A stretch of DNA of 64,000 nucleotides from an uncultured Gammaproteobacteria bacterium (GTDB taxonomy: Bacteria; Pseudomonadota; Gammaproteobacteria; UBA9214). The first letter of the stretch is position 1. Each line of letters starts with the position of its first letter. A program made the position numbers and the translations under genes. Shown here one piece after another: positions 8,055 to 58,711 of this stretch. Below the pieces are notes generated by a model. It had not been told where the DNA came from. It was given only the letters and a program-made list of their open reading frames with translations, and did no database searches. The stretch spans positions 1 to 64,000 of the forward strand of contig CAWHCQ010000004.1 of the NCBI GenBank assembly GCA_963827755.1, read 5' to 3'.

Positions 8055-9361
8055 TCATCGTGCTGATTGGGGTTTCCGGTACCGGCAAGAGCACCATCGG
8101 CAAACTCCTCGCCGGGCAACTTGGCTGGCCGTTTCTGGATGCAGACGATTTTCACCCGCCGCATAACATCACCAGGATGGCCGAAGGCCTGCCGCTTGAC
8201 GATGATGACCGCCGGCCGTGGCTGGACAGGCTGCGTGACGAACTGCATCAGTATATCGGCCGGCGCGAATCCGCCGTGCTCGCCTGCTCGGCATTAAAAC
8301 AGTCCTATCGCCGGCGCCTTGACCCCGATTCGGCCAACGTGCACTTCGTCCATTTGCAAGGCGATTACGAAGTGGTCCATGCACGCCTTGCACGGCGCAC
8401 CGGGCACTTCATGCCGGCCGGATTGCTGCGCAGCCAGTTTGCCGACCTGGAGCCTTTGACCAGCGGGTTGGTCGTCAGCGTCGACCAGACACCTGCGGCT
8501 ATTGTCGATGAGATCACAAGCGGCCTTGCACTGAAGAAGATATTACACACAACCACGATTGCCGACGGCCTGATGTTCCCCGAAGCCCCGCGCTGGCATG
8601 AGGGCGAACTGTGGTTTACCGACCAGCACGCCCGGCGCGTGCTGCGCATGCGCCCGGACGGCGGCATGACCGAAGTCATCAAGACCGCGGACCTGCCCGG
8701 CGGTCTCGGGTGGCTGCCGGATGGCACGCCACTGGTCGTGCTGATGACCGAACGGCGTGTATGCCGAATCAGGAAGGGCCGGCTTGAGGATTATGCCGAT
8801 CTGTCCGGACTCGCCGGTTTTCATTGCAACGACATGCTCGTTGACAACACGGGACGCGCATGGGTTGGCAACTTCGGCTACGACCTGCATGGCGGTGAAC
8901 CGGTCAAAGAGACCGGGATTATCCTGATTCCGGCTGACGGACCGCCGCGCATCGCGGCGCGTCACCTCATCTTCCCGAACGGCATGGCGATCACGCCCGA
9001 CGGCAACACCCTGATCGTCGCCGAGACCTTCGCCGCCCGCATCAGCGCCTTTGACATCGGCGCAGACGGTCAACTCTGTGAGCGACGTACCTGGGCTGAC
9101 CTTGATGGCGCCTGTCCCGACGGCCTGTGCCTGGCACCCGATTTGACCTTGTGGGTTGCCGCCCCGAATATCGGCCAGGTTTTGCGACTGCGCGAAGGCG
9201 GGGAAGTCCTCAGTCGTGTCATCACCAGGGGCCGCCCCTACGCCTGCATGCTAACTGGTGACGCCGGGCAGCTGTATATCACCACCTCGGAAACCGACGA
9301 CCCGCAAGAGGCAAAAACCCGGCGCAGCGGCCGCATCGAAATGACCAGGGTAGAAAAATAA
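8051..9361 (+). CDS. Gluconokinase (GntK/IdnK type) fused to SMP-30/gluconolactonase domain
   Basis: N-terminal GVSGTGKS P-loop, DADDFHP, LACSALKQSYR, HFMP..LL.SQF..LE; C-terminal FPEAPRW, CNDM, FPNGMAITPDG, PDGLC. Confidence 0.88.
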   Translation: MIIVLIGVSGTGKSTIGKLLAGQLGWPFLDADDFHPPHNITRMAEGLPLDDDDRRPWLDRLRDELHQYIGRRESAVLACSALKQSYRRRLDPDSANVHFVHLQGDYEVVHARLARRTGHFMPAGLLRSQFADLEPLTSGLVVSVDQTPAAIVDEITSGLALKKILHTTTIADGLMFPEAPRWHEGELWFTDQHARRVLRMRPDGGMTEVIKTADLPGGLGWLPDGTPLVVLMTERRVCRIRKGRLEDYADLSGLAGFHCNDMLVDNTGRAWVGNFGYDLHGGEPVKETGIILIPADGPPRIAARHLIFPNGMAITPDGNTLIVAETFAARISAFDIGADGQLCERRTWADLDGACPDGLCLAPDLTLWVAAPNIGQVLRLREGGEVLSRVITRGRPYACMLTGDAGQLYITTSETDDPQEAKTRRSGRIEMTRVEK

Positions 9362-9388
9362 AGGGTGTCTATGCACATCTTCTGCTTA
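9357..9388. repeat. Family A element, degenerate single arm (copy 3)
   Basis: AATAAAGGGTGTCtatGCACATcTTCTGCTTA matches 4321-4352 with 4 mismatches; contains the stop codon of the upstream gene. Confidence 0.7.
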
Positions 9389-9413
9389 CACTGGTTCATG
9401 ATGTAAACAGACA

Positions 9414-10427
9414 TTGTTAAACGAACAAGAGATGGAGGTGTTGGAAATGATATCCAAGCGCGTGTTTCAACCTGGACTGCTCGTTCTCATAGCAGGAGTT
9501 TTCCTCCTGATGGCCCAGCCTGCTGCGGCGAAAAATGTGAAGATTACGCCACTCGGTAGTCACGATGGCGAATTCTGCGTGTTTGACCGGGCGATGGTTC
9601 TGGAAGATCCGGACGGCACGCGGCTTCTCTATGATGCAGGCCGCACGGTTGCCGGGGCGAGCGATCCCCGTCTCGGCAAGGTCGATGTGGTGCTGGTCAG
9701 TCATATGCACGGCGACCATGTCGGCGACCGCCATGTCAAACGCGTCAATGCCGGTGAGTGCGGCAAGCCCGAAATATCAGAACTCGACACACCGAATACC
9801 AACAGCGTCAACATCGCCCTGGCCACGAAGGCTGCGATCATTACCGGCAGCGAGATGCCGAAGTTCTTCGCGGCCAAACTCAAGTCGCTGGGTGGTGATC
9901 CGAAGGCCGCTCAGCTGGTGCGGTTCGGCGCATCACGCAAGGTCGCTGGTGTCACGATTGCCACGGTGCCGGCGGTGCACTCCAATGGCATTGCGGGTGC
10001 GATGATCGGCGGTGAACTTGGCGAAATGCTCGAAGCGGCGGGGCTCAGCGCTTCTGCCGGGCCGCCGACGGGCTATGTGCTCACATTTTCGAATGGCCTG
10101 GTTGTTTACCTGTCGGGCGACACGGGTATCACCGCGGAGCAGGACCTTGTGGTTCGCGGCCACTATGGTGCAAAGCTGGTGGTCATGAATATCGGTGATA
10201 CCTATACAACGGGTCCGAATGAAGCCGCCTATGTCGTTAATGAGCTGATCAGGCCCGCCGCGGTTATCCCGTCGCACGCCAATGAAGCGGCGACGCAGGG
10301 CGGCAAGGTCATCGCGGGCACGCGTACGGATACCTTTATCAAGGCAACGCGTGTTCCTGTCCATCTCCCGCTGAGCGGCCGCACGCTGGAATTCGACAGT
10401 CAGGGGCTGTGCGTCGCGGGTTGCTGA
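9414..10427 (+). CDS. Secreted MBL-fold metallohydrolase (start uncertain, possibly 9447)
   Basis: Signal peptide ending AQPAAA; SHMHGDH (HxHxDH), YLSGDTG, VIPSH. Confidence 0.85.
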   Translation: MLNEQEMEVLEMISKRVFQPGLLVLIAGVFLLMAQPAAAKNVKITPLGSHDGEFCVFDRAMVLEDPDGTRLLYDAGRTVAGASDPRLGKVDVVLVSHMHGDHVGDRHVKRVNAGECGKPEISELDTPNTNSVNIALATKAAIITGSEMPKFFAAKLKSLGGDPKAAQLVRFGASRKVAGVTIATVPAVHSNGIAGAMIGGELGEMLEAAGLSASAGPPTGYVLTFSNGLVVYLSGDTGITAEQDLVVRGHYGAKLVVMNIGDTYTTGPNEAAYVVNELIRPAAVIPSHANEAATQGGKVIAGTRTDTFIKATRVPVHLPLSGRTLEFDSQGLCVAGC

Positions 10428-10455: not shown

Positions 10456-12432
10456 TTATTCCAGGCGGTGTAATTCAACGCGCCGGTTCTTGCGCAAACC
10501 TTCTCTTGTCGAATTATCCGCAATGGGTCGTTGACCACCGTAGCCGGCCGCGCCGAGGTGATCCGCATTCACGCCTCTTGCAACCAGATAATCCCTGACG
10601 GTTTCCGCGCGTTTCAGAGATAACCATTTATTGTAGGCCGGGTTGCCCTGCGCGTCGGTGTGGCCGGCAACTTCCAGGCGAAGGCCGGGTTGCTGGACGA
10701 GGATGCCGGCGACACGGTTGAGAATGCCCCGCGCCTTATCGGTAAGTTGATGCGAGTTAAAGAGGAAGTTCACATCTTCCAGGTTGATCGCCACGCCGGC
10801 GGCACAACCGGTTGAATCCACGACAATGCCTCGCGGTGTCCCGAGGCACAGGTCACGGCTGTCGGCTACGCCGTCCGCATCCGCGTCCGTGGCTGCAATC
10901 TGCGGCGGAGCGACTGTAACAGTGCCCGCGACGAGTTCTTTGCTGGTTGGGGGCTTGACCTTGTCAGATCCAGGTGGGGCGACTGCCGGGGCCACGCTGA
11001 CCCTGGTGGTCGCCGGCCTTGTCCGGCCAAGCGCGTCTGCCTCTGACCGGGCTGTCGTCAGGGCGTCCCGGGCCCGGGTCCGCTCCCGGCTGCAAGCGGC
11101 CAGGTCTGCCTGCAGGTCATCGCGCTCGGCAGTCATGGCGGTAAGCGTCTGTTCTGTATCCTGCAGTATGGTCTTGTGGTTCATCAGCTGGTTCATGACC
11201 CTGTTCAGCCTGTTCTTGAACATCTGCGTCTGCACCCTGGTTTCGTTGAGAAGCTGGCCGGATCCGGTGGCCTCGGACCTGGCCTGCTCCAGGGTCTGCG
11301 TGACACTCTGCAGTTCAGCCTGCAGCGCGGCCAGCTGCTCGTCACGGCTGGCGAGATCGCTGCGCAGGCTGTCGCGCTCTGCAGTCAGGGGTTGCACATC
11401 TCGCAGCAGCGCGGTCTTCTGGCTTTCCAGTCGGGTTGTAAGTTCGCTCAGCTTGTTATTGAGCATTCCGGCCTGTGCCCGGGTTTCTTCGAGCAACTGC
11501 CTGGCCGTGGTGGCTTCGGACCTGGTCTGCTCCAGGGTCTGCGTGGCTGCTTGCAGTTCAGTCTGCAACGTGGCCAGCTGCTTGTCCCGGCCGGCAAGAT
11601 CGCTGTGTAGCCGATCGCGTTCTTCAGTCAACATCCGGTATTGCTGCTGATCGTTGCTGATTTGCCGGCGATTCTGTTCAAGTGTGGCGCTGGTGGTGTT
11701 CAGTTCCGTGGTCAGTTCAGTCACGTGCGCCTGCAAGGCCAGTTGCTCGCTGGTGATGTTCGCCAGCTTTTCATTGAGTGCGAGTTCTGCTTCAAAACGC
11801 TGCTGAAGTTTTTCCCTTGACTGCTCAAGCGCTGCATGTGTCTTGTCCAGTTCTGTACTTTTCGCGATCAATTGTTCCTGCGTTTGCTCAAGTTCGGCGC
11901 GGAGTGATTTATCACTGGTTGCCGGCGCAGCGGGAACGATTCGGGATTGTCCGCGCGGCGGTATCCGGGTGTAATTCCGCGGAGGTGCAGGCCACTGTAG
12001 CGCTTGTTGCCGGGGTTGTGCGTAGCCACCCCGGCCGGATGGTGGCGCATACGGGCCCGGCACAAAACCGGTCATGGGCGCAGGCGTTCGCATGGCCGGT
12101 GCGGCAGGCCTGTACTGTGACGCTTGTTGCCGGGGTTGAGCATAGCCACTCCGGCCAGTCTGCGGCGCATACGGGCCCGGCACAAAACCGGTCATGGGCG
12201 CAGGCGTTCGCATGGCCGGTGCGGCAGGCCTGTACTGTGCCGGATATTGCCAGGGTTGCGCGTATCCACCCCGGCCGGGCGGCGGATAACGGCCCGCTGC
12301 AGAACCGGTTACGGGCACAGGTGTTTGTCGGGCAGACCGGTCCGGCCATGCTTCATTCGACCATGCACTTTCGGCCGCGATAGCGATCAGCGCGGCTGTA
12401 ACCAGTGCGGCAATAGACGATAATTTTTTCAT
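10456..12432 (-). CDS. Secreted OmpA-C domain protein with Pro/Gly/Tyr repeats, long coiled coil and DxDxDG repeat
   Basis: Signal peptide; C-terminal VAGHTD, N..LS..RAETV..YL, GYG...P, NRRVE; DADADGVADSRDLC; heptad-rich central region; no beta-barrel. Confidence 0.85.
   Translation of the reverse strand: MKKLSSIAALVTAALIAIAAESAWSNEAWPDRSARQTPVPVTGSAAGRYPPPGRGGYAQPWQYPAQYRPAAPAMRTPAPMTGFVPGPYAPQTGRSGYAQPRQQASQYRPAAPAMRTPAPMTGFVPGPYAPPSGRGGYAQPRQQALQWPAPPRNYTRIPPRGQSRIVPAAPATSDKSLRAELEQTQEQLIAKSTELDKTHAALEQSREKLQQRFEAELALNEKLANITSEQLALQAHVTELTTELNTTSATLEQNRRQISNDQQQYRMLTEERDRLHSDLAGRDKQLATLQTELQAATQTLEQTRSEATTARQLLEETRAQAGMLNNKLSELTTRLESQKTALLRDVQPLTAERDSLRSDLASRDEQLAALQAELQSVTQTLEQARSEATGSGQLLNETRVQTQMFKNRLNRVMNQLMNHKTILQDTEQTLTAMTAERDDLQADLAACSRERTRARDALTTARSEADALGRTRPATTRVSVAPAVAPPGSDKVKPPTSKELVAGTVTVAPPQIAATDADADGVADSRDLCLGTPRGIVVDSTGCAAGVAINLEDVNFLFNSHQLTDKARGILNRVAGILVQQPGLRLEVAGHTDAQGNPAYNKWLSLKRAETVRDYLVARGVNADHLGAAGYGGQRPIADNSTREGLRKNRRVELHRLE
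12001..12290. repeat. 120-bp tandem repeat, about 2.4 copies, inside the OmpA-domain gene
   Basis: 12001-12120 and 12121-12240 nearly identical, partial third copy to ~12290; encodes 40-aa units. Confidence 0.92.
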
Positions 12433-12453: not shown

Positions 12454-13272
12454 TCAGAGTAAGTTTCTTTTATTCGATTTAGCCTGCTGAATACCCAGCC
12501 ACCCCGTCCACTCCCGGTACAGTCTTTCATCGACAGCTGCTACCGAGGAACGCGGCGTGAGCGAGTGGGTAAAGACCGGTTCACCGTCCAGCGTGCAGGC
12601 GAAGCCCCCGGCTTTCTGGAAAATGAATTCACCCGCTGCGTAGTCCCAGAGGTTCGAGCGGCCATGCAGGTAGACATGGCAACGACCTGCGGCCATCCAG
12701 CACCAGTCCAGCGCAACGGAGCCGAAGCTGCGTTGCGAGGCATACGGGATCTCCGTCGCCAGGCGGGTCGCCAACGGTGCATCGAGCCGCTTGAAATCGA
12801 TCAGTGCCGTGGTCTGTTTAAGTTCCAGTCCGCTTGAGGTGAGAGAAAGGGTTTCATTGTTGAGCACCGCACCCTGTGTGTCGCTTGCCGCGAAGAATTC
12901 GCCGCGCACCGGGTCATAGACCAGGCCGAGCGATACCGAACCGTTCTGCAGCAGTGCCAGTGAGATGCAAAAGTAGGGGATGCCGGTGGCAAAATTACGG
13001 GTACCGTCCAGCGGGTCGAGACACCAGACCGGTTGATCGGATGTCAGCATGGCCAGTTGTTCGTCCGCGGACATTTCCTCACCCAGGAATACTGTCTCCG
13101 GCCAGTGTTCCTGCAACTGCCTTGCCACGCACGTCTGTACGGCGAGGTCGGCCTCGGTAAGTACGCTGCCATCGGCCTTGTGTGCACGCGCTACTTGCGC
13201 AAACCGCGGCAGCAGTTCTTCGATACCCGCCGAAACGATGATCTCCTGCAGTTCTTTCAGGTCATATGGCAT
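12454..13272 (-). CDS. Inositol monophosphatase family protein
   Basis: TEAD, GEE, WCLDPLDGTRNF, RSFGSVALD, WDYAAG. Confidence 0.92.
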   Translation of the reverse strand: MPYDLKELQEIIVSAGIEELLPRFAQVARAHKADGSVLTEADLAVQTCVARQLQEHWPETVFLGEEMSADEQLAMLTSDQPVWCLDPLDGTRNFATGIPYFCISLALLQNGSVSLGLVYDPVRGEFFAASDTQGAVLNNETLSLTSSGLELKQTTALIDFKRLDAPLATRLATEIPYASQRSFGSVALDWCWMAAGRCHVYLHGRSNLWDYAAGEFIFQKAGGFACTLDGEPVFTHSLTPRSSVAAVDERLYREWTGWLGIQQAKSNKRNLL

Positions 13273-13384
13273 GCCTGATAATAATATCTGTAGCTCACGG
13301 AATACAAGCGGTCAGGGTGCTTAAAACATAATGATTCTCATAGGATTTCAGGAGCGGGGACAGGCCAGGTCTTCGGCTGGCCAG

Positions 13385-13437
13385 GGGGGCGGACTTGTTT
13401 GCTGTAAACCTGAAAAATAAATCTGTCCCCTTTTTTT
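13385..13437. repeat. Degenerate REP-like palindrome, family B (GGGGACAGATTTATTT type)
   Basis: GGGGGCGGACTTGTTT (13385-13400) pairs with AAATAAATCTGTCCCC (13415-13430), with three G.U pairs and one mismatch, followed by T7. Confidence 0.5.
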
Positions 13438-13484
13438 GTACAGGTAACATAGAATATAACTTGTACCTGCAGCAGGAGTTTTCG

Positions 13485-13826
13485 ATGAGTGAAGAAACAC
13501 CACCTTCACACAATGGTCCGGAAGACAGGCAACAGCCACCCATATCTGTGAAAGAAAACCTGAAAACACGTTCCACCTGGCTGCGACTGTTTTTTATGTT
13601 TGTGATGGTTTTGTTGTACTCGGTTTCAAGAGTGGTCGTTAGTGTGGTTGTTCTGTTGCAATTTTTCTGGGTACTGTTCACAGCAGAGACCAACAAGCCG
13701 CTTGAAAGATTTGGCCAGTCACTCGCAACCTACACCTACCAGATCATCCGTTACCTGACATTCAACACCGAGGCGCGGCCATTTCCTTTCGATCTCGACT
13801 GGCCGATCGGGCCACCAGGGTACTGA
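13485..13826 (+). CDS. DUF4389 family membrane protein
   Basis: STWLRLFFM, QF..LFT...N..L..FG.SL..Y......YLTFNTE.RPFPF..WP; AGGAG upstream of ATG 13485. Confidence 0.85.
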   Translation: MSEETPPSHNGPEDRQQPPISVKENLKTRSTWLRLFFMFVMVLLYSVSRVVVSVVVLLQFFWVLFTAETNKPLERFGQSLATYTYQIIRYLTFNTEARPFPFDLDWPIGPPGY

Positions 13827-13853
13827 CACCCTTATAATCGAGGAGGCAAGCCT

Positions 13854-15056
13854 ATGTCGGCACCGGCAAGTGTCACGCGCTACGAACCCGGGGTGGTCAT
13901 CCCTGCATTGCTTGGCGTCACGGCCCTGGCATTATTCATCAATTATGATGTTTCCAACCGCCAGGCACTGCTGCTGCTGATCGGCAGCGGTCTGGGTTTC
14001 AGCCTGTTCCACGCCGCCTTCGGATTTGCCGGCGGCTGGCGGCAGTTTATACGTGAGCGGCGCAGTGCGGCGATCCGCGCCCAGCTGCTGCTGGCAGCCC
14101 TGATATCGCTGGCCTTTTTTCCGTTGCTGGCGGGCACGGTACCCGGGTTGTCCCTGCACGGCGCCTACGCCCCGGTGGGGATATCTGTTCTGGCAGGCGC
14201 TTTTCTGTTCGGCATCGGTATGCAGCTTGGGGGCGGCTGCGGTTCCGGCACCCTGTACACCGTTGGTGGCGGGCATATAAAGATGCTGGTTACACTGGTC
14301 TTTTTTATTGCCGGCTCGGTCATCGGCTCGATCCATTTGCCCTGGTGGACACAGCTGCCCTCCCTGGGTAAGGTTTCCTTGCTTGATACCTTCAGCTGGC
14401 CCCTGGCGCTCAGCCTGCAATTGCTGGTACTGGCGACCCTCTATCTATTGGTCACCCGCGTCGAACGGCGGCGCTATGGCAGCCGTGAAACTCTGACCCG
14501 GTGCCGGGGGCAGTACTCCCTGTTACAGCGACTGGTGTCCGGGCCGTGGCCGGTATTGTGGGGCGCAGTGGGACTGGCACTGCTCAGCCTGGCAACGCTG
14601 CTGGTCGCAGGGCATCCCTGGTCGATCACATTCGCCTTCGGTCTCTGGGGTACCAAGCTGTGGGCCGCGCTGGGCGGCGACATCAGCAGCTGGAGCTACT
14701 GGAGCCATGGCTATGCCGCAACCGCACTCGGGCGCAGTGTACTTGCCGACGCCACGTCGATCATGGACATCGGCATCATCCTGGGTGCCATCCTGGCGGC
14801 CGGCCTGGCCGGCCGTTTTGCGCCCGTCGACTCGATCAGGCTGCGTGATATTCTCACTGCCGTTGCCGGGGGGCTGTTACTGGGTTACGGCGCACGCCTG
14901 GCCTTCGGCTGCAATATCGGTGGTCTGCTTGCCGGCCTGGGATCCGGCAGCCTGCATGGCTGGCTATGGCTCGCCAGCGGTTTCATCGGCAGCATCATCG
15001 GGGTTCACCTCAGACAGCGCTTCGGCGTTGATAAAGCGGTAAAGCAAGTCACATGA
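13854..15056 (+). CDS. yeeE: YeeE/YedE family sulfur-compound transporter (copy 1)
   Basis: Polytopic membrane protein; FGIGMQLGGGCGSG and GYGARLAFGCNIG motifs; first-Cys position reads FGFAG. Confidence 0.9.
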   Translation: MSAPASVTRYEPGVVIPALLGVTALALFINYDVSNRQALLLLIGSGLGFSLFHAAFGFAGGWRQFIRERRSAAIRAQLLLAALISLAFFPLLAGTVPGLSLHGAYAPVGISVLAGAFLFGIGMQLGGGCGSGTLYTVGGGHIKMLVTLVFFIAGSVIGSIHLPWWTQLPSLGKVSLLDTFSWPLALSLQLLVLATLYLLVTRVERRRYGSRETLTRCRGQYSLLQRLVSGPWPVLWGAVGLALLSLATLLVAGHPWSITFAFGLWGTKLWAALGGDISSWSYWSHGYAATALGRSVLADATSIMDIGIILGAILAAGLAGRFAPVDSIRLRDILTAVAGGLLLGYGARLAFGCNIGGLLAGLGSGSLHGWLWLASGFIGSIIGVHLRQRFGVDKAVKQVT

Positions 15057-15340
15057 AAGACATTCGAAACAGAAATCGCTGGATTATGGGAGCCTTTGTG
15101 GGCACCGCCGCGATAGCCGTGGCCATTGACCACACCCGCCATCGGCTGCCGGCACCGGCGCAGCCTGATGAACAGTCCCGGAGCCAGACCGACGTTGTCG
15201 TTATCGACGAAGACGACGATTACGACGAATATGACGAATCCCCCTGCGGCCTGGACGACTCACCCTGCTCGATGGATGACAGCCCGTGTTCGCTGGACGA
15301 AATGGACGATACCGAGGACGAGTCACCATGCAGCCTGTAG
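15053..15340 (+). CDS. Small membrane-anchored acidic protein with four SPC heptad repeats
   Basis: ATGA overlap with yeeE; basic N-terminus plus hydrophobic helix; DESPCGL/DDSPCSM/DDSPCSL/DEMDDTE/DESPCSL; synonymous codon variation between repeats. Confidence 0.8.
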   Translation: MKDIRNRNRWIMGAFVGTAAIAVAIDHTRHRLPAPAQPDEQSRSQTDVVVIDEDDDYDEYDESPCGLDDSPCSMDDSPCSLDEMDDTEDESPCSL

Positions 15341-15342
15341 CG

Positions 15343-15975
15343 ATGCATTGCCACCTCGAATGCCCGCCGGCGGCGCTGTTGTTCGAGTGCATTCAGGAAA
15401 TGGGCGCACACCGCAGCAACCCGGTACTTGAACTACTGCGGGACATACCGGTTTTTGAACAGGGTAGCAAATACCCGCAACCTGCACTGGCATTCGGGGA
15501 TGAAGGCTGGCGTAGCTATTATCACAGTCATTCCACCGCTGACGCCGACGTCAGGGAACATGGCCATTTTCACCTGTTTACCCGCACAGGACAGGACTGG
15601 GCGCACCTGGCCGCACTGGCAATGGATCTGGAAGGACAGCCGTTGCGCTGGGTTATGACCAATCGCTGGGTTACGGGTGGCAGCGACTGGCACGACCGTA
15701 ACAGCCTGCTGGCGGCCGTTGATGCACTTATCCCCTCGAAAGAACCGGATGTCCTGCGCCAGTGGCTGGCGTGTCTGTTAAAACTTTATCAGCCTGAGTT
15801 GGGCGACTTGCTCGACGCACGCGATGCGCAGGTTGCCTGCCTTCTCCAGGGGCGCTGCAAAGAAGAAGTTCTCGACGATCGTACCCTGTATGAACTGGCC
15901 AGCATGCCGATCGACCTGACTGCAAAACTGGCTTCACAGCTGACAGGGGAAAACTCATATGACAGCTGGTTGTAA
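15343..15975 (+). CDS. His-motif hypothetical protein (DUF6969-like)
   Basis: YYHSH, EHGHFHLF, HLAALAMD..G.P, TNRWVTG; ATG 2 bp after the upstream stop; family name recalled, not verified. Confidence 0.7.
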   Translation: MHCHLECPPAALLFECIQEMGAHRSNPVLELLRDIPVFEQGSKYPQPALAFGDEGWRSYYHSHSTADADVREHGHFHLFTRTGQDWAHLAALAMDLEGQPLRWVMTNRWVTGGSDWHDRNSLLAAVDALIPSKEPDVLRQWLACLLKLYQPELGDLLDARDAQVACLLQGRCKEEVLDDRTLYELASMPIDLTAKLASQLTGENSYDSWL

Positions 15976-16003
15976 CACGGCCCGGCATGTCTGCCGGGCC
16001 GTG
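15976..16003. terminator. Hairpin between convergent genes
   Basis: 12-bp perfect stem CACGGCCCGGCA/TGCCGGGCCGTG, 4-nt loop; weak U-tract. Confidence 0.55.
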
Positions 16004-16014
16004 AATACACCTGC

Positions 16015-17214
16015 TCAGTAAGCCGGCGCGTCGGCTTCGTAGGACATGCCCAGTTTTCCGGCCTGTTCGCGCACGGCACGGTAGATCTTGTCATCCAGGG
16101 AGTCCGTGGCGCCACCGGCTTCTTCCACTTTCTTGCCGAGGTAATCCGCGCGTTCTTTTGTCAGTTCACTGATCTGGCGCTTCAGTTCGTTGCGGCGCTC
16201 GGCGGTCTCGCTGATGACTTTCGCCTGTTCTTCCGGTGCCATGGCCTGCATGGGTTCCGGTAACTTGTCCTTGTCGATGCTGGAAAGATCGACGCGTCCG
16301 CTGGTTACTTCGTCCACCAGTTCACCCTCACCGAGGAAGTTGGCGCTGCCGCTTTTCGAGGCATTGAACGTCGCCCGTCTTGCCCGGGACTCGACCGATG
16401 AGGCCGCATGCAGTTTGTCGGATGCTGCCAGCTTGCGGCGCTGTTTTTCCTTCTCTTCCCTTGTTCCGTAGTAAAGGCGTGTGTCATCCATCTTTGCAGA
16501 CAGCCTTGCGATTTTCTCGTCAAAGGGAGTGGTGATCGCGACGGCGTTGCCGGCCTGTTCCACCTGGAAGTATTCGCCGGCACCCAGTTTGGCAATCTGC
16601 TGCCAGGCGGGGGTGGTGCTGCCCATCTGGCCGGCCTGGATTGCATTGACCACGATGCCTTTCTCTTTTGCCACCCTGAGGGTAACCGGGTATTTGACGT
16701 CGTTCGGGTAATCCATGTGCGGCGGGGCGTCACCGACCAGGAACACGACCTTGTAGGTCCCGTTCTGCTGGTTCCAGTCCATCTTGTGGACGGCATCATG
16801 CAGCGCCTGGTTGACGCTTTCCGGTCCGTCGCCGCCGCCGCTGGCCTGAAAATCCATTAATCTTGCGTAGATGGAATCCAGGTCACTGGACAGGTCCACC
16901 ACTTGAGTGACATAGGCATCACCCCTGTCGCGGTAGGCGACCAGCCCCATCCTGATTTCGGGCGCGGATTGCGCCGAAGCCAGGGTGGTGGCGATGGACC
17001 AGATCTTTTCCCTGGCGGCCTGGATCAGGCCCCCCATGCTGCCGGTGGTGTCCAGTACGAACACCACGTCGATGCGCGACCGCTCGTTGGTCAACGGGTC
17101 GACATAGGGCGGGTCGGCAGGGGTGATACCCCCGACGCTGTGGTAGGCCGGCAGGAAGGCAACCGTGGCCGTGGTAGCGGCAAATAATGCCAGTGCGATG
17201 AGTTTTGATTTCAT
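16015..17214 (-). CDS. Secreted VWA domain protein
   Basis: Signal-like N-terminus; VVFVLDTTGSM (MIDAS), MGLVAYRD, GGGDGPE, FLVGDAPPH. Confidence 0.88.
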   Translation of the reverse strand: MKSKLIALALFAATTATVAFLPAYHSVGGITPADPPYVDPLTNERSRIDVVFVLDTTGSMGGLIQAAREKIWSIATTLASAQSAPEIRMGLVAYRDRGDAYVTQVVDLSSDLDSIYARLMDFQASGGGDGPESVNQALHDAVHKMDWNQQNGTYKVVFLVGDAPPHMDYPNDVKYPVTLRVAKEKGIVVNAIQAGQMGSTTPAWQQIAKLGAGEYFQVEQAGNAVAITTPFDEKIARLSAKMDDTRLYYGTREEKEKQRRKLAASDKLHAASSVESRARRATFNASKSGSANFLGEGELVDEVTSGRVDLSSIDKDKLPEPMQAMAPEEQAKVISETAERRNELKRQISELTKERADYLGKKVEEAGGATDSLDDKIYRAVREQAGKLGMSYEADAPAY

Positions 17215-17234
17215 GTGCGTGTCTCCTTGCAAGT

Positions 17235-17804
17235 TCAATGATTGGACGAGAGTTTGCGCACCGCGGTTTCTGCAACGCGGTAGGCGTGATGAAAGCGGTC
17301 TTCGCGATCAACACTTTCCCGGGCAGCATCAGGCTTTTGCCTGATGCTTTTCGGAATGATGACAAACAGCGCCTGCACCAGGAAAAAACACCAGATGCCG
17401 AGAAACACGCTGCCCGTTTGCGTAAGTGCCCAGATGCCTGCTGCCAGGCCAAGGCCGTTCAGTCCCATGTCGGCGAGTGCGGACAGCGCGCTGGAATAGA
17501 AGTAGAGCGAGCGGATCAGCCAGATCACACCCAGATGGATGCACACGTAGAGCAGCAGGGGAGGTTGCATGAACCAGAGCACGCCCGCGACCAGTAACCA
17601 GGCCGCGGCCGCCGTGACCCGGCCAACACGCTCGGGGCTGCGGCCCAGCAGGTAGACGACATAGGCGAGGCCGATGGCGGCGATCAACAGGCGCAATACC
17701 GGGAAGCCGGGAAACGCCGTGTCCATGGCGGTGTACAACACGCCACCGGCCAGGCTGATAGCAATGGCGACGCTGACGCCTTCAAGGAATGTGGGCTGTT
17801 TCAT
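17235..17804 (-). CDS. Hypothetical multi-pass membrane protein
   Basis: About 6 hydrophobic segments; overlaps the pspA-like stop; C-terminal DRF..A...AE.A.R.L. Confidence 0.75.
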   Translation of the reverse strand: MKQPTFLEGVSVAIAISLAGGVLYTAMDTAFPGFPVLRLLIAAIGLAYVVYLLGRSPERVGRVTAAAAWLLVAGVLWFMQPPLLLYVCIHLGVIWLIRSLYFYSSALSALADMGLNGLGLAAGIWALTQTGSVFLGIWCFFLVQALFVIIPKSIRQKPDAARESVDREDRFHHAYRVAETAVRKLSSNH

Positions 17805-18337
17805 GACCCGCTCCTCTGCTGTTTTTCGCGAAGAAAGGCCACTTCCACCTCCTCATCGCGGACGCTGATATTCGGGATGCTCCAGTTGTCGGCGGGTTGG
17901 GCGCGAGTGTTTTCCCCGGCCAGCAGTTCGGCCTTCTGCCGCATGCTTTCCAGGCGTGACTGGTTCTCTTTCAGTCGTATGTTGAGGTCATCAAGCGTTT
18001 CTGCGAGCGCGCTGCGTTTGCGGCTAAGATTTTTGCCAAAGCGTTGCGTCTCCAGCCTGCGCTTGATACAGCTGCGCGCCAGCTCGTCATTGCCGGATGC
18101 AAAACAGGTGTCAAGTTCCTCTTCAATATCATGCAGTGACTGTTCAAGGTCGGATTCGCGGGTAGTGAGCTGTCGCAGTTCGTGGTGCAACAGTTTGTGG
18201 CGCTGCTCGTCGCGGGCCAGATCCTCTTCCATCTCCCGGACCGCCTGGCGGAGCAGCACCCCGGGTTCCTCGATGCGGTCGAGCACGGCATGGAAATCGG
18301 CCTGGAACAGTCGCGAGACGCGTGTGATAAGTGCCAT
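17801..18337 (-). CDS. pspA: PspA/IM30 family protein
   Basis: MALITRVSRLFQADFHAVLDRIEEP..LL.Q..REME, G..ELAR, coiled coil; GGAGG upstream. Confidence 0.85.
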   Translation of the reverse strand: MALITRVSRLFQADFHAVLDRIEEPGVLLRQAVREMEEDLARDEQRHKLLHHELRQLTTRESDLEQSLHDIEEELDTCFASGNDELARSCIKRRLETQRFGKNLSRKRSALAETLDDLNIRLKENQSRLESMRQKAELLAGENTRAQPADNWSIPNISVRDEEVEVAFLREKQQRSGS

Positions 18338-18435
18338 GATTGTTACCTCCTGCAGGTTTCTCTGAATGTGCATCCAGTCTGGATGAACGGGCGGCGGGCT
18401 TGTAGACAGGCTTTGGTAAAACCTGTGGCCGGGGT

Positions 18436-27473: not shown

Positions 27474-27944
27474 ATTCTGCTACTGCGCCTGGTCAGCGGG
27501 ACGGCGGCAGGTATGAAATGGATGAAGGTTGCGCCATTCCAATGTCGTATGTCAGGCATTAGAAAAACAGCAAATTACTATAGTCCAATAAACTGAAAAC
27601 GCCGCTTCAATACCTGCATCACCGCCTGTGTGAGAACAACAAGCGGGGTGGCGTCGCGCACCATGCCCATTGACACTCAATACTCTCCCTGATTTTTATA
27701 ACCATTTACCCCAATTGATTGTCGGGAACAAGTGGCGTAAAAGTTACATCTATCCTGCTGTAATAAATTTGTAATAATTCAACTAGGATAAGTCCAGGGA
27801 TACAGAGGTACCGGAAGATCCGATAAAAAACAGATTTGCATTACGTAGGGGGCACGCGTAACGACAGGGCGTCACACCGGGTAAATGATGTGACAAACAG
27901 AAGTGCGGGGGCGTGAAGAAAAAATCAACTGGAGGATGTGTGAA

Positions 27945-28955
27945 ATGAAACGATCAATAATGTATGTCGTGCGCTGTGTCGTGGTCGCATTGTTCGCCTG
28001 GGGCGGTACTGCCGTGGCGGCGCAATGGGCAAACCCCGAGCTTCTTGTCAGTGCCGATGAACTCAAGAAGGGTATGGAACAGGGCAATTGGGTGGCAGTC
28101 GACTGCCGTGGTCTGAAAGACTATATCGCAGGCCATATACAGGGGGCGATCAGTTTCGGAAATCGCTGCAAGAAGGCACTTCGGGACCCCACCTCGCGGC
28201 TCTTTCGGGACATCTCGAAGTATGAAAAGCTGTTCGGCAAGGTGGGTATCAGTAACGACACCCACGTGGTCTTCTACTATGACGGGCTGGGTACGATGAA
28301 CGATGCCACCATAGGCTTCTGGGTCATGGAGTATCTCGGCCATGACAAGGCGCATGTCCTCAATGGCGGCGTTGACGCCTGGCGCAAGGCCGGCAACCGG
28401 CTGGATAACAAACCAGTCAAGTTGCAGGCAGCCACTTTCAAGGCCAATGTCATGCATAACCGTTACGCCGGCACGGATGAGATACTCGAGATTGCCAACG
28501 GCGAGAAGCCGGACACGCAACTCCTCGACTCAAGATCAGAGAAAGAGCATCAAGGCAAGGACATCCGTGCGCTACGCGGCGGCCATGTGGCGAACACGGC
28601 GCTTAACGTCTCGCACAAAGATACGCTGCTCAAGGAAAAAAACAAAAAGACAGGCAAGATGGAGGTCGTTGCCTACCTCGATGCAGATGCCGCCGCGAAG
28701 GCGTTTGCGCCACTGGACAAGAACAAGCGCGTAGTGGCCCACTGCCAGACAGGTACCCGCTCGACCCTGACTTACCTGCAGCTGCGGGCCCTCGGCTTCA
28801 AGGACCCGGCCAACTGGGATGATTCATGGCGCATATACGGCTCCACGCTGGATTTTCCGGTCGAGGACGAGCAGTGGTACAACTTCGACGGCGTGAACAA
28901 GAAGATCAAGAGCCTGGAGAAAAAGGTCACGGCGCTGGAAAAGGCCAAAAAATAG
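27945..28955 (+). CDS. Secreted tandem-domain rhodanese/sulfurtransferase
   Basis: Signal peptide (..GTAVAA); Y..GHI.GA, VLNGG..AW, LDSRS..E, RGGH, active-site HCQTGTRS, WDDSW. Confidence 0.9.
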   Translation: MKRSIMYVVRCVVVALFAWGGTAVAAQWANPELLVSADELKKGMEQGNWVAVDCRGLKDYIAGHIQGAISFGNRCKKALRDPTSRLFRDISKYEKLFGKVGISNDTHVVFYYDGLGTMNDATIGFWVMEYLGHDKAHVLNGGVDAWRKAGNRLDNKPVKLQAATFKANVMHNRYAGTDEILEIANGEKPDTQLLDSRSEKEHQGKDIRALRGGHVANTALNVSHKDTLLKEKNKKTGKMEVVAYLDADAAAKAFAPLDKNKRVVAHCQTGTRSTLTYLQLRALGFKDPANWDDSWRIYGSTLDFPVEDEQWYNFDGVNKKIKSLEKKVTALEKAKK

Positions 28956-30980: not shown

Positions 30981-32471
30981 ATGCAACAGCAAGTCGCAAG
31001 TGCAGCAACTGCCGATGCAGCAGTGGCAAAGATGACACTGGAAGAAGAGGCGAAAAGAAAAAAACGGTTCTGGGCAAACAGTCTGCTGGCATTTTTTGCA
31101 TTCATCAGCGTCGGGACCTATGTCTACAACGAGTACTACATCTATCTTTCGGTATACCTGTGGTTCGGAATGATTTACGGCATGTGCCTGCAGTACGGGA
31201 AATTCTGTTTCTCGTCGGCATTCAGGGACCTGTTTGCCATCAGGGTCCCGAGAATGCTGGTCGGCATCGTCATCGCAACGGTGCTGTTCGGGGTAGTATC
31301 GGCGCCGATCACAGCGATGGGGCTGAGCACCTTCCATGCTGCACCGGTCAGCAGTCATGCGATCATCGCCGGCGTGTTCTTCGGAATTGGCATGGTCATA
31401 GCCGGCGGCTGTGCATCGAGTTCCCTGTACAAGACCGGCGAGGGGAACATGAACGCGCTCATCGTGATTCTGTCCCTCAGCCTCACGCAGGCGTTGTTTG
31501 CCGACGTCGGCGGATGGGCCAACTATTTCGTACCGGAGGCCTGGGCACAGTCGGCGGCCGAGAAGGGTCTGCCTGCGTCAATCAATGTTACCGATGGCTG
31601 GGTCGACCAGTATCTCGCCGGCTACGTCTGGAACCAGCCGGCGCTGACCTATGCGAATGTACTGGGTTTGCAGACGGATTCGGTATCTGGCGCATTCGTG
31701 GGTAACTTGCTGGTGGGTATTCTCATTCCCGCAGCACTGCTGCTCGCCCTGGTCTACGCTATTTACTGGCGCAAGGGATACCGCAACAAACAGAAAAAGG
31801 CAGGCAAGGAGGTCAGTGGTCTCAGTGGCGAACTGGCCGGCTACTGGTCGATGATTATCGCAAACAAGCGGACCGCCATTGCCGGACTGATCCTGGGTAT
31901 CGCCTGTGCACTGCATATGCTTGTCATGCAGGGCTTGCGAGTGAAATTCGGCTTCAAAAATGCCGGGGTGTTGCTGGAGCGTATCGGCTGGGACTTCGGC
32001 CTGTCGGTACAGGGGACTGTCTTCGATCCGGGCTACTGGTATGTGACAACCCAGGAGGCACAATGGGTCGGCTGGACGCTGCAGAAAATGGGTATCAATA
32101 ACCTGGACAATATCTATTTCGGATTCGTCAATGGCATCCCGAACCCGGCGATCAATCCTGCCGACTGGATGTCCTTTGCGCTGATCGGCGGAGCGGCAAT
32201 CATCGCGCTCTACCACGACGAATTCAAGTTCAAGAAGCCCACCTGGGAGACCGCCATGTGGTCGGTTATCGGCGGATTTTTCATGGGCATCGGTGCGCGA
32301 CTTGGACTCGGGTGCAACGTGGGCGCCTTCTTCGTACGGGTCGCCAACGGCGACTGCTCGGGCTGGTTGTTCGGCCTGGGGATGGCGGGCGGGGCCTATC
32401 TGGGCGTCAAGTTCTTCAACTGGTGGACCGAGAAAAAGCTTGCCAAGGAAATGGAAGCGTGTGGTTTTTAA
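30981..32471 (+). CDS. yeeE: YeeE/YedE family sulfur-compound transporter (copy 2, long form)
   Basis: GKFCFSSAFRD, GIGMVIAGGCASS, GIGARLGLGCNVG (three conserved Cys); GAGGAGG RBS. Confidence 0.9.
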   Translation: MQQQVASAATADAAVAKMTLEEEAKRKKRFWANSLLAFFAFISVGTYVYNEYYIYLSVYLWFGMIYGMCLQYGKFCFSSAFRDLFAIRVPRMLVGIVIATVLFGVVSAPITAMGLSTFHAAPVSSHAIIAGVFFGIGMVIAGGCASSSLYKTGEGNMNALIVILSLSLTQALFADVGGWANYFVPEAWAQSAAEKGLPASINVTDGWVDQYLAGYVWNQPALTYANVLGLQTDSVSGAFVGNLLVGILIPAALLLALVYAIYWRKGYRNKQKKAGKEVSGLSGELAGYWSMIIANKRTAIAGLILGIACALHMLVMQGLRVKFGFKNAGVLLERIGWDFGLSVQGTVFDPGYWYVTTQEAQWVGWTLQKMGINNLDNIYFGFVNGIPNPAINPADWMSFALIGGAAIIALYHDEFKFKKPTWETAMWSVIGGFFMGIGARLGLGCNVGAFFVRVANGDCSGWLFGLGMAGGAYLGVKFFNWWTEKKLAKEMEACGF

Positions 32472-32500
32472 CTTAGTCAGTACATAACGGGGTATCTAAA

Positions 32501-32752
32501 ATGGGTATGAAATTCGAGAAGACCGACGATGGGCGTTATCGCCTGAACGTCAACGGGTATGTGTGTCCGCATCCGCAGATATACACAAAAAAGGCCCTGG
32601 AGAAGCTGGCCTCGGGCGAAGTCCTGGAGCTGATTTTTGACAATCCCTCATCTGGCGAATCCATTCAGCAAATGGTAGAGAATGACGGCAACGAGATGCT
32701 GGACCAGAAAAAAGAGAGTGGCCAGTTTATTTGGCAAATTCAGAAAGTATAG
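32501..32752 (+). CDS. tusA: TusA/YeeD-family sulfur carrier
   Basis: LNVNGYVCPHP (CPxP), KKAL..L..GEVLE...DNP.S..SI. Confidence 0.9.
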   Translation: MGMKFEKTDDGRYRLNVNGYVCPHPQIYTKKALEKLASGEVLELIFDNPSSGESIQQMVENDGNEMLDQKKESGQFIWQIQKV

Positions 32753-54392: not shown

Positions 54393-55229
54393 TTACTTGC
54401 GTGCACCGGGGCCGTTCATTTCCAGTCCGTTACTCATGTAGGTATGGAAGTACTCCAGTGCCGTGTATTCAGGACCCTGCGGTTTGTAGGCCTTGGCACG
54501 TACCTGCTTGTTGCAACCGCCGTAGCGGCGATGCAGGGTACCCAGGCCGCCCCACTTGGAACGGTACACGGGAAAGTGCGTCACTTGACCAAGTCCCGGG
54601 CTCAGCAGGTCAGCGCGAATCTTGTTACCGGAGTTATAGACATGGCAGTCAGCACAGGCCATGTTCAACTGACCGCGTTTGGCATAGAAATGCGCCTTGC
54701 CTTGATTGTAAATCTCCAGTGCACGTGGATCATCCGGGATTTCTACATTGATGGTCTTGCCCCGGGATGTGTAGTGCATGTATGCAGAGATGTCGGCAAT
54801 TGCACCCTTCTGATACTTGAGGGGCTTTTCGCCATTCGCCTCCCGGCAGGCATTGATGGCGGCTTCCAGGGTGATTACCTTGCCTGAAGCCTTGTCAAAG
54901 AAAGGATAGCGGTGTGCAATGCCATCACCACCGTTTTCAAAGCAACTGGCATAGGTTTTGCCGTTGGCAAACGGCTTGTTGAATAATGTCTTGCCTTTTT
55001 CTATGTTCAGCTCATAGGGCGGAAACTCCTCGATATCCTCCCATTGCTCACGGGAAGCTGCGTCAATGGAATACACCCCATTGACGAAGTCATTGAAGGG
55101 CGTGCCCGGGAAGCGTTTTTGAAAGTAGGATCTGAATTTTTCCAGATCCTCTTGCGGTGTCGCCTGTGCCGTCGCTGCAAAGGTGCCAAACAGACCAATT
55201 ACCAGGAATGCTGTCAGGAGTTTTTTCAT
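54393..55229 (-). CDS. soxA: Sulfur oxidation c-type cytochrome SoxA (monoheme)
   Basis: FPPYE..IE.G, YASCF (degenerate first heme site), RGQLNMACADCH, FPVYRSKWG..TLHRRYGGC, ALEYFHTYMSNG. Confidence 0.95.
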   Translation of the reverse strand: MKKLLTAFLVIGLFGTFAATAQATPQEDLEKFRSYFQKRFPGTPFNDFVNGVYSIDAASREQWEDIEEFPPYELNIEKGKTLFNKPFANGKTYASCFENGGDGIAHRYPFFDKASGKVITLEAAINACREANGEKPLKYQKGAIADISAYMHYTSRGKTINVEIPDDPRALEIYNQGKAHFYAKRGQLNMACADCHVYNSGNKIRADLLSPGLGQVTHFPVYRSKWGGLGTLHRRYGGCNKQVRAKAYKPQGPEYTALEYFHTYMSNGLEMNGPGARK

Positions 55230-58489: not shown

Positions 58490-58711
58490 AACGTGAGTGA
58501 TTGATATATTTACAATTAAAGCAACTAAGACAGGGAATCAACGCCCGGGTTCAACCTGAATGCGGGTGTTTTGCATACCTCCCCCTACAGGGGGCTTGCC
58601 TTACGGGGTGTGTTATCATAACGTCTTCCACGCATTATAAAATGTATTTCATCAGGATCCGTGCGATCGGGTCTTTAAAAGGCTGTAAATTTTAATATTA
58701 GGAGAGACGTA

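Follow-up and report, generated by a model that had tools for sequence, protein, structure and literature searches.

A Pro-Cys-repeat membrane protein encoded between a two-cysteine YeeE channel and a DUF6969 protein in an uncultured gammaproteobacterium

The first 64,000 nucleotides of contig CAWHCQ010000004.1 (assembly GCA_963827755.1), hereafter the window, belong to an uncultured gammaproteobacterium of the lineage UBA9214 and contain a yeeE gene for a channel of the YeeE/YedE family, followed by an open reading frame (ORF) of 95 amino acids and by a gene for a histidine-rich protein with the domain DUF6969. The predicted product of the small ORF is a single-pass membrane protein with an acidic tail of repeated Ser-Pro-Cys units, and the question raised by the locus is whether such a protein is real and, if so, what it does beside the channel. 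The preliminary description, made from the sequence alone, is confirmed in its observation and partly supported in its interpretation: the small protein is a real, conserved and unannotated family encoded between YeeE and DUF6969, and its tail may act in the periplasm as an arm from which sulfane sulfur passes to the channel.

The three genes form one tight operon. As described before, the TGA of yeeE overlaps the ATG of the small ORF (ATGA, 15053-15056); the small ORF itself ends with a TAG at 15338-15340. Direct reading of the tail gave the same five heptads, DESPCGL, DDSPCSM, DDSPCSL, DEMDDTE and DESPCSL (four with SPC and one degenerate), with SPC encoded each time by different codons (TCC-CCC-TGC, TCA-CCC-TGC, AGC-CCG-TGT and TCA-CCA-TGC). 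The third gene had been placed 2 bp after the small ORF. An ATG does exist at 15343, but a start at 15328 is likelier, because this in-frame ATG is preceded by GAGGA at 15314-18, the close orthologues (L006, L009 and L010) start DUF6969 at the equivalent of 15328 with an overlap of about 10 nt with the small ORF, and a recorded protein (P0121), 96% identical to the DUF6969 protein of the window, has 215 amino acids. In L003 and L011 a GTG is found at the corresponding start position.

The small protein matched no Pfam or NCBIfam model at E ≤ 0.01, and a SoxY domain was not recognisable in it with these models at this threshold; its tail is of low complexity. Of 193 candidates from a word-indexed search, 185 were homologues at E ≤ 0.01. 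The 120 of them that were listed have 60-114 amino acids, are unnamed or named only "hypothetical protein", and come from Thiogranum, Thioalkalispiraceae, Kaarinaea lacus and gammaproteobacterial metagenome-assembled genomes. When 1.84 billion cluster representatives were searched with a profile, 85 matched at E ≤ 0.001, 54 of them including the N-terminal part with the transmembrane (TM) helix and the D-H-T (DHT) motif. Eleven longer profile matches were inspected, and ten were rejected as low-complexity repeats (MHHAPCT or KKESPCG type) without relation to the family; the remaining one, P0238, is a chimeric fragment with a true tail. Fused or longer forms did not score among 124 candidates, which argues weakly against their existence.

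All parts of the protein noted in the preliminary description, that is, the basic N-terminus, the single TM helix and the acidic tail, were recovered as the plan of the whole family. The hydrophobic helix is directly followed by a near-invariant block, A-I-D-H-T-R-H-R-L-P, and then by a variable linker and the tail. Among 45 sequences D26, T28, H30 and P33 are invariant, and H27 and R29 are conserved in at least 90%. The tail is on average about 50 residues long, of which 10.7 are acidic and 0.6 basic, and contains from 2 to 10 cysteines per protein (mode 4). In 146 unique family sequences, 99% of the tail cysteines are preceded by Pro and 72% have Ser at position -2, while position +1 is occupied by Ser, Gly or Ala and position +2, in 96%, by Leu or Met. 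Every tail seen behind a DHT motif has at least one Pro-Cys unit, the only exception among the 146 being a chimeric entry. In 70 of 135 full-length members, as in the window protein, two residues follow the last cysteine.

The context of these cysteines was compared with three known types of site, all of which were dropped: a CaaX-like C-terminal box (Cys at -3 has the wrong spacing), a lipobox (the tail lacks an L-x-x-C context) and a heme CxxCH site (absent from the small protein). A variant with two cysteines is present in the genus of the window organism (L001, L002, L004, L005 and L008); it has a (D/E/G)C(G/V/E)... motif and ends in (S/A)PCSL, with a stretch of basic residues ahead of this last motif, and a gene for a secreted rhodanese lies downstream in every case. 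The four-repeat form, found in the window and its closest relatives, occurs without an adjacent rhodanese gene.

Synteny was analysed at 28 loci from a collection with one genome per species, 26 of which hold downstream sequence. A yeeE gene lies immediately upstream of the small gene in all 28 loci, a DUF6969 gene lies immediately downstream in all 26 testable ones, and in 15 of the 26 the next gene after DUF6969 encodes a two-domain rhodanese. Clustering of ORFs revealed no other neighbour family in more than three of the 28 loci once shadows of the small gene, antisense or over-extended, are set aside; therefore the unit is a self-contained cassette. DUF6969 was found in 8 of 25 genomes of the genus of the window organism, its own genome counted, and the small ORF is present at all eight loci. 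The module rhodanese looks secreted: inspection by eye found a hydrophobic Sec-like segment before the (V/L)PGP(L/V)V...W block in 19 of 20 printed N-termini, the twentieth (L023) being an over-extended alternative-frame ORF, and a YCNSG loop in 19 of 19 printed C-terminal parts. At the window locus this gene is missing, and DUF6969 is followed by a convergent gene for a VWA-domain protein instead.

Both the family and the synteny bear out the earlier view of the three genes as one unit with a real small protein, and the 95-amino-acid ORF is far beyond chance. Retention of the SPC motifs, linkage to YeeE and occurrence in sulfur oxidisers had been proposed as checks; the homologues do keep Pro-Cys motifs, their genes are linked to YeeE, and sulfur oxidisers are among their hosts, the window genome itself having dsrA and soxB.

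Two contigs deserve separate mention. The metagenome contig L081:1-2532 encodes a DHT-anchored protein and DUF6969, with no YeeE match in the 2.1 kb upstream; it is the only case of this kind with room upstream, and may reflect a faulty assembly, a frameshift or a genuine exception. L011 is titled as a Halobacteria archaeon, and its small protein is 78% identical to that of the window, with YeeE at E 2e-92 and DUF6969 at E 2e-111; this contig is probably mis-binned.

The channel clade and the predicted complex

The YeeE protein matches PF04143 over all profile positions (1-310 of 310; E 4.1e-65, 220.8 bits, cut-off 27). It remains far below the cut-offs of the NCBIfam models for TsuA (50.7 bits vs. 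645 for NF041049; 55.7 bits vs. 400 for NF052577) and of the selenium-linked YedE/FdhT model NF033796 (116.4 bits vs. 350). The only cysteines invariant in 25 orthologues are C129 (GGGCGSG) and C353 (FGCNIGG). In a pairwise alignment to TsuA of known structure (6LEO, 33.5 bits) they correspond to C91 and C293, respectively, and Gly57 stands at the position of C22. According to the accessible text of Tanaka et al. 2020 (PMC7449682), C91 and C293 of TsuA are essential and C22 is dispensable; C293 lines a periplasmic indentation that holds thiosulfate, C22 and C91 are on the cytoplasmic side, and the C-terminus is inside. Judged by its sequence, the window YeeE belongs to a distinct two-cysteine clade of the YeeE/YedE family.

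The same window contains a second yeeE gene (30981-32471, + strand), whose 496-amino-acid product has all three TsuA-type cysteine motifs (GKFCF, AGGCAS and LGCNVG). It is directly followed by a TusA gene (32522-32749, +), the two forming a canonical YeeE-TusA pair at 30981-32749, so the genome keeps both kinds of YeeE. TusA has no place in the operon studied here, as had been stated, the genes downstream of its yeeE carrying no TusA domain. The resemblance to the TsuA-TsuB (YeeE-YeeD) systems of E. coli and Spirochaeta thermophila (6LEO, 8J4C) thus lies in the PF04143 domain, in the conservation of the essential C91/C293 pair as C129/C353, and in a small partner gene directly after the channel gene. 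The window YeeE differs from TsuA by its low score to 6LEO, an extra N-terminal helix and the lack of a C22 equivalent, and its partner is not a cytoplasmic protein of the TusA fold but a membrane-anchored Pro-Cys tail, predicted to be periplasmic, together with DUF6969.

Complex prediction with YeeE, also suggested at the outset, was done once for YeeE and the small protein, using alignments of 24 matched orthologue pairs, three runs and three controls. The interaction prediction score from aligned errors (ipSAE) was 0.78, 0.80 and 0.79 in the three runs, with 0.01 for the best control. A calibration, in which 58 of 80 solved complexes attained this mark, as did 2 of 110 mismatched pairs, holds only roughly, because our own alignments were used. 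The predicted local distance difference test (pLDDT) of the partner was 56-60, and at least 50% of the contacts agree between the runs. The confident contacts fall in residues 1-32 of the small protein. In the model residues 5, 8 and 9 contact YeeE 322-326 in an Arg-rich loop, the helix contacts YeeE 138-145 and 306-313 (residues 1-23 spanning all three segments), and D26 and H27 contact K268, A272 and S295-L297, in the region 268-272/293-298, in a loop with many Trp and Tyr. The prediction supports binding of the small protein to YeeE.

The orientation of the complex may be deduced from the charges of the YeeE loops and the description of TsuA. On these grounds YeeE 321-332 (RFAPVDSIRLRD) would be cytoplasmic, as would the loops 62-76 and 201-226, which are rich in Arg, and YeeE 276-302, with many Trp and Tyr residues and few positive charges, would be periplasmic. 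Together with the predicted contacts this places the N-terminus of the small protein inside, its DHT motif at the outer face of the membrane and its tail in the periplasm. The positive-inside rule agrees: Lys and Arg are more numerous in the N-terminal than in the C-terminal flank of the helix in 129 of 135 full-length members, equal in six and less numerous in none, with means of 4.4 and 1.9. With the signal peptides of sister proteins (see below) and the secreted-looking rhodanese pointing the same way, a cytoplasmic N-terminus and a periplasmic tail, as assumed in the preliminary description, are most likely.

DUF6969 in and outside the module

The product of the third gene is a member of PF22308 (DUF6969; E 2.8e-36, 125.4 bits, cut-off 27; 123.8 bits in the genome search), a family without an assigned function. 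This was its only Pfam match, NCBIfam gave no name, and DUF6969 was not mentioned in the searchable literature. Alignment of 46 DUF6969 sequences showed twelve invariant residues, Y65, H66, H68, H78, G79, H80, F81, H82, H93, D100, N112 and W114, and a nearly invariant E77. An AlphaFold2 model (pLDDT 92.1, predicted template modelling score 0.88) places the histidines on the consecutive beta strands 61-67, 79-87 and 90-99, and the cluster of six His with Asp/Glu is a probable metal site. The protein is taken as cytoplasmic, because it lacks an N-terminal hydrophobic segment.

Structure comparisons identified no solved relative. The best Foldseek match in PDB had E 0.22, the top matches being E2 ubiquitin enzymes (E 0.2-1, root-mean-square deviation above 14 Å); among 48,161 chains compared by VIA-align none had Z ≥ 5, the highest Z being 3.6; the DUF6969 profile found among PDB sequences only a golgin fragment (E 0.87); and ESM Atlas gave no usable match. 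A cupin fold, suggested by the HxH...E...H pattern, received no support from the lists of structure matches. A sulfurtransferase of the TusA, DsrE or rhodanese type was rejected, given that only PF22308 matches and no cysteine is invariant. Of the "His-motif enzyme" of the preliminary description, the word "enzyme" was not borne out: with PF22308 as the only match and no solved relative, no enzymatic activity can be inferred.

We then looked at DUF6969 loci in metagenomes and in other genomes. A metagenome scan with the DUF6969 alignment gave 574 matching stretches, and the best 80 were kept, so this sample is biased to the clade of the query. A YeeE-family channel, whole or split, is encoded at 52 of the 80 loci. 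Thirty-two loci have a full-length YeeE upstream, with a DHT-anchored Cys protein between the two genes in 31 of them, and 20 have split YeeE halves upstream, 16 of these with a PC-repeat peptide if filtered strictly and 19 if counted more loosely. A rhodanese is encoded downstream in 42 of the 80.

Among 401 sampled Pseudomonadota genomes, DUF6969 is present in 12, the window's own included. Three of the 11 others have the full module, five have another Cys-repeat neighbour, two have nothing of the kind, and one locus is cut by the contig end. Two of the three full modules have split YeeE halves of the PmpB/PmpA kind, and in one complete split-YeeE module (L058) the rhodanese gene is followed by a gene for an ArsR-family regulator. 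The sister peptide of the split-YeeE modules is Lys-rich and of the NPCGP type, with a hydrophobic Sec-like signal (as judged by eye) and no membrane anchor.

The other Cys-repeat neighbours of DUF6969 differ much in sequence. In L053 (8265-9113, -) the neighbour is an exported NPC-repeat protein of 282 amino acids with a SoxA/TsdA cytochrome c domain (E 6.1e-10); in L051 (6744-7838, -) it is an NPC-repeat protein of 364 amino acids with a weak cytochrome P460-like region (22.3 bits, cut-off 27); and in L133, upstream of 4662, it is likewise a large exported NPC(A/S)-repeat protein with one or the other of these cytochrome regions. None of the three has a YeeE within 4.5 kb. L052 encodes a 124-amino-acid ANPCA-repeat protein with a signal peptide and 11 cysteines (9913-10287, +), and, between this gene and DUF6969, a secreted protein with a sulfatase domain of the formylglycine-generating enzyme (FGE) type (8778-9650, -). 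In L055 (8679-8975, -) and L056 (8735-9097, -) lipoprotein-like proteins with acidic EGCCAA / GACCAAAC repeats and 13-15 cysteines are encoded directly upstream of DUF6969. In L053 (6136-7010, +) and L059 (1031-1842, +), which have no YeeE module at this locus, a gene for an extracytoplasmic function (ECF) sigma factor and a short gene with a Cys motif lie within 1.5 kb of DUF6969; we take the latter to encode a ZAS-type anti-sigma factor. The ECF sigma call rests on a family match for L126, and L053 and L059 were judged by eye. The pairing of DUF6969 with exported Pro-Cys repeats is thus wider than the link to YeeE, yet not universal.

Readings of the Pro-Cys tail

The genome of the window organism encodes DsrA (635 bits, on another contig) and, in the window, SoxB (52238-54181, +; 711.7 bits over two pieces). 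There is also a gene for a SoxA/TsdA-type cytochrome c in the window (54393-55229, -), and three TusA genes in the genome, two of them in the window (the one paired with the second yeeE and another at 58700-58939, +). By its gene content the organism is a sulfur oxidiser with Sox and reverse Dsr (rDsr) pathways, and with both dsrA and soxB present sulfane sulfur must enter the cytoplasm for oxidation. The route of sulfane sulfur from outside the inner membrane to the cytoplasmic Dsr or sHdr enzymes is an acknowledged gap. SoxT1A is described as the only importer demonstrated in dissimilatory sulfur oxidisers, and as not general, in the accessible part of Li et al. 2024 (PMC11582611). The accessible part of PMC10812762 reports directional import of zero-valent sulfur in E. 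coli by split YedE1E2, with one essential cysteine per half.

Given this setting, the tail may be a periplasmic multi-thiol swinging arm that relays sulfane sulfur into the two-cysteine YeeE, a reading to which we assign a probability of roughly one half. The small protein would be a dedicated single-pass subunit of this YeeE clade, with its basic N-terminus in the cytoplasm, its helix packed on YeeE at about 140-145 and 306-313, and its DHTRH motif docked on the periplasmic segment formed by K268-A272 and S295-L297. The disordered acidic tail with four Pro-Cys units would thereby be placed at the outer mouth of the channel, near C353, the putative counterpart of the TsuA cysteine that contacts the substrate in the periplasmic indentation. 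Its thiols would be loaded with sulfane sulfur, as persulfide or polysulfide, either from periplasmic zero-valent sulfur or from thiosulfate via the secreted rhodanese, the product of a fourth gene in most relatives and the possible loader where present, and would pass it to the channel cysteines for import. Cytoplasmic DUF6969, which fills the genomic place held by TusA-like TsuB in the TsuA systems, would receive or process the imported sulfur, or else act on the tail before its export.

Several observations weigh against the arm. The support for binding is the confidence of the model itself, and exposed periplasmic cysteines could simply oxidise to disulfides. Since DUF6969 is patchy in the genus, sulfur oxidation there does not depend on the module. 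Neither the window genome nor its closest relatives encode the rhodanese of the module; in the window genome the best match, at another site, is 31% identical. A tandem rhodanese with a hydrophobic N-terminus and a HCQTGTRS loop, 28% identical to the module rhodanese of the relatives, is encoded 12 kb away (27903-28955, +); it is likely secreted and could serve the operon in trans.

Further difficulties concern DUF6969. None of its cysteines is invariant among the 46 sequences; to our knowledge, every known cytoplasmic sulfur acceptor (TusA, DsrE, rhodanese) has a conserved one. At 15 of the 80 metagenome loci neither YeeE nor a PC-repeat ORF nor a rhodanese was detected, and eight of these keep more than 1.1 kb of downstream sequence; a sixteenth locus has no YeeE and no PC-repeat ORF, but does have a downstream rhodanese. 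Most of these loci belong to a distant DUF6969 clade, 28-31% identical to the query. In 5 of the 11 other genomes DUF6969 has an exported Cys-repeat protein as its neighbour and no YeeE lies within 4.5 kb; its occurrence away from the module suggests that its role may concern the cysteine peptide and not delivery from the channel. Finally, since the tail is acidic in the window type and Lys-rich in the split-YeeE type, its charge is no consistent guide to the ligand.

The association of DUF6969 with YeeE-less exported Cys-repeat proteins implies that the tail could be the repeat core of a DUF6969 substrate, a possibility raised already in the preliminary description. The maturation would resemble that of a ribosomally synthesised and post-translationally modified peptide (RiPP): DUF6969, as a cytoplasmic metalloenzyme, would modify the xPCx cysteines before export of the tail, as MNIO enzymes (oxidative enzymes that depend on multinuclear non-heme iron) act on the precursors of bufferins and oxazolins. 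Once modified, the tail would chelate copper or some other thiophilic metal in the periplasm, or would be a redox-active group, with YeeE and the rhodanese supplying or removing sulfur. This is the main rival of the sulfur arm; we consider it possible although rather unlikely, and not exclusive of the arm. It would explain why DUF6969 adjoins exported Cys-repeat proteins as different as those with NPCGP, ANPCA and EGCCAA repeats and the NPC-cytochrome, and it accords with the invariant cluster of six His and Asp/Glu and with a trio that is obligate in 26 of 26 loci. An ECF sigma gene with a Cys-motif gene near DUF6969 in two genomes and an FGE-sulfatase gene in one also recall the bufferin and oxazolin precursors, which share Sec signals, Cys repeats, sigma/anti-sigma genes and fusions with cytochrome c or sulfatase, as far as the accessible text of PMC12452194 describes them.

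Several findings disfavour this kind of maturation. The module contains no MNIO (DUF692) or DUF2063 gene, and for DUF6969, which matches PF22308 alone and has no solved relative, no enzymatic activity can be inferred. The frequency of YeeE (52 of 80) and of secreted rhodanese (42 of 80) at DUF6969 loci indicates a context of sulfur trafficking, not of metals; 16 of the 80 loci have no Cys-repeat gene nearby; and the number and spacing of the motifs vary, from 2 to 10 cysteines, with the two-cysteine variant in the same genus. Compared directly, the two groups are alike in having small exported Cys-repeat proteins beside a cytoplasmic protein rich in metal ligands, and an anchored or exported Cys-repeat precursor is indeed found here (a TM anchor and 2-10 xPCx units). 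Some bufferin and oxazolin clusters, Sec-exported RiPP metallophores made by MNIO enzymes, also resemble the surroundings of DUF6969 in their sigma/anti-sigma genes and cytochrome c fusions, according to the same part of PMC12452194. The window module is unlike them in the motif, which is xPCx and not EGKCG, in the absence of DUF692 and DUF2063, and in having a sulfur channel and a rhodanese as partners.

Binding of metals or metalloids by an unmodified tail is improbable. In this case the Asp, Glu and Cys residues would capture Cu(I), Zn, Cd, Hg, As(III) or selenium species, and YeeE would transport either this ion or a sulfur ligand for it. Carboxylates and thiols abound in the tail, and the His cluster of DUF6969 is typical of metal sites. 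The ArsR-family regulator in L058 and the weak match of YeeE to the selenium-linked model (116 bits) could be read in the same sense, but that score is far under the cut-off of 350, and sulfane sulfur too is sensed by ArsR-type repressors, according to the accessible part of PMC11582611. Moreover, the Lys-rich sister peptides disfavour cation binding, no metal efflux or metal-sensor genes recur beside the module, and the active-site Cys loop of its constant partner, the rhodanese, is intact.

Equally doubtful is a purely structural or regulatory subunit, whose helix and DHT motif would stabilise or gate YeeE and whose cysteines would be a redox switch or plug reporting periplasmic sulfide or oxidant: the helix and the DHT motif are far better conserved than the tail, which varies widely in length and number of cysteines down to a two-Cys version, and the soxT1A locus encodes a Cys-less single-pass protein of 56 amino acids (accessible part of PMC11582611), but all DHT tails seen, with the one chimeric exception among 146, keep at least one Pro-Cys unit, the context of Pro-Cys, a small residue and Leu or Met is kept across large divergence, and the split-YeeE peptide is soluble, without an anchor to gate anything.

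The sulfur arm also has a conceptual precedent. The arm of SoxY is a single GGCGG motif. In Hyphomicrobium denitrificans, as described in the accessible part of PMC11582611, the periplasmic Cys arm of SoxYZ offers sulfane sulfur to the YeeE-family channel SoxT1A, and a short single-pass protein, the Cys-less one mentioned above, is encoded next to soxT1A. The small protein of the window differs in having no SoxY domain, in carrying several Pro-Cys units, in being anchored at the channel (as predicted), and in its neighbours, which are DUF6969 and rhodanese and not DsbA-like or Rhd442 proteins. The YedE1E2/PmpAB channels of Cupriavidus pinatubonensis and Sinorhizobium meliloti share the logic of two cysteines, and the sister module is built of such split halves, together with DUF6969 and the PC-repeat peptide. 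The window YeeE is, unlike these, a fused form of 400 amino acids, and YedE1E2 works with persulfide dioxygenase and glutathione, the accessible text of PMC10812762 mentioning no peptide partner, DUF6969 or secreted rhodanese. Nor is DUF6969 or a Pro-Cys peptide included in the YeeE contexts of the literature covered (TsuAB, the SoxT loci and, in the accessible text of PMC13047784, the YTD cluster). The module was not found in the published literature covered, and the supplementary YeeE tree of PMC11582611, which is outside that coverage, may hold this clade.

A broader proposal, put forward tentatively, is that the operon represents one form of a widespread, undescribed four-part envelope system composed of YeeE or split YeeE, a Pro-Cys arm, DUF6969 and a secreted rhodanese. 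Such a system might be the missing import route of zero-valent sulfur for cytoplasmic oxidation by rDsr or sHdr, with the repeats as a new kind of protein-bound polysulfide carrier and DUF6969, as a metalloprotein, taking over the acceptor or processing step that TusA has in the TsuA systems. The module offers testable candidates for this route: a two-cysteine channel clade, a channel-bound multi-thiol arm, a periplasmic sulfurtransferase without a known acceptor, and a conserved His-cluster protein without a solved relative. For DUF6969, its tie to exported Cys-repeat proteins across Proteobacteria is the first functional context.

Features, transcripts and neighbouring genes

Table 1. Features of the yeeE operon, in window coordinates.
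Feature	Position	Strand	Basis or remark
yeeE, YeeE/YedE-family (Sulf_transp) channel, two-cysteine clade, 400 aa	13854..15056	+	PF04143 match
Gene for small single-pass protein, 95 aa, translationally coupled to yeeE	15053..15340	+	ATGA overlap
Basic N-terminus (residues 1-9) and TM helix (about residues 10-25) of small protein	15053..15127	+	
Juxtamembrane motif D-H-T-R-H-R-L-P, residues 26-33	15128..15151	+	best conserved part of the family
Variable linker, residues 34-60: short hydrophobic VVVI stretch, then acidic run	15152..15232	+	poorly conserved in alignments
Five heptads: four [D/E]-[D/E]-S-P-C-[G/S]-[L/M] and degenerate DEMDDTE	15233..15337	+	read from sequence
DUF6969 gene, His-rich product, 215 aa (ATG 15328) or 210 aa (ATG 15343)	15328..15975	+	PF22308
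10-bp perfect inverted repeat with 4-nt loop, between operon end and convergent VWA gene	15978..16001	.	CGGCCCGGCA tgtc TGCCGGGCCG

A scan of 13200-16200 for promoters found no promoter-like site. In the same region two weak terminator-like sites were found within yeeE, fewer than in shuffled sequences, and none at the operon end; the inverted repeat listed last in Table 1 was not called a terminator, because no T tract follows it.

Metatranscriptome contigs of one study, 95-99% alike to the window, cover 13596-14111, 14152-14401, 14742-14965 and 14980-15489. The last one (510 nt, 9 differences) contains the end of yeeE, the whole small ORF and the start of DUF6969. The segments 14512-14713 and 15522-16127 are uncovered in three metatranscriptome runs, which bears neither way. 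These RNA-library contigs are a hint of expression, a single transcript being not proven and DNA carry-over being possible. The first of them bridges the junction between yeeE and a gene for a DUF4389 membrane protein (13395-13826, +), which lies 28 bp upstream in the same direction; this gene was rejected as a member of the module, having no match beside it in 35 related loci.

On the other side, the convergent region 16015-18373 (-) encodes a secreted VWA-domain protein, a multi-pass membrane protein of 189 amino acids without a family and a PspA/IM30 protein. Further upstream of the operon, at 10456-12432 (-), a 658-amino-acid protein is encoded that has three near-identical Pro/Gln-rich repeats at its N-terminus, a long repetitive coiled coil and, as judged by eye, an OmpA-like C-terminus.

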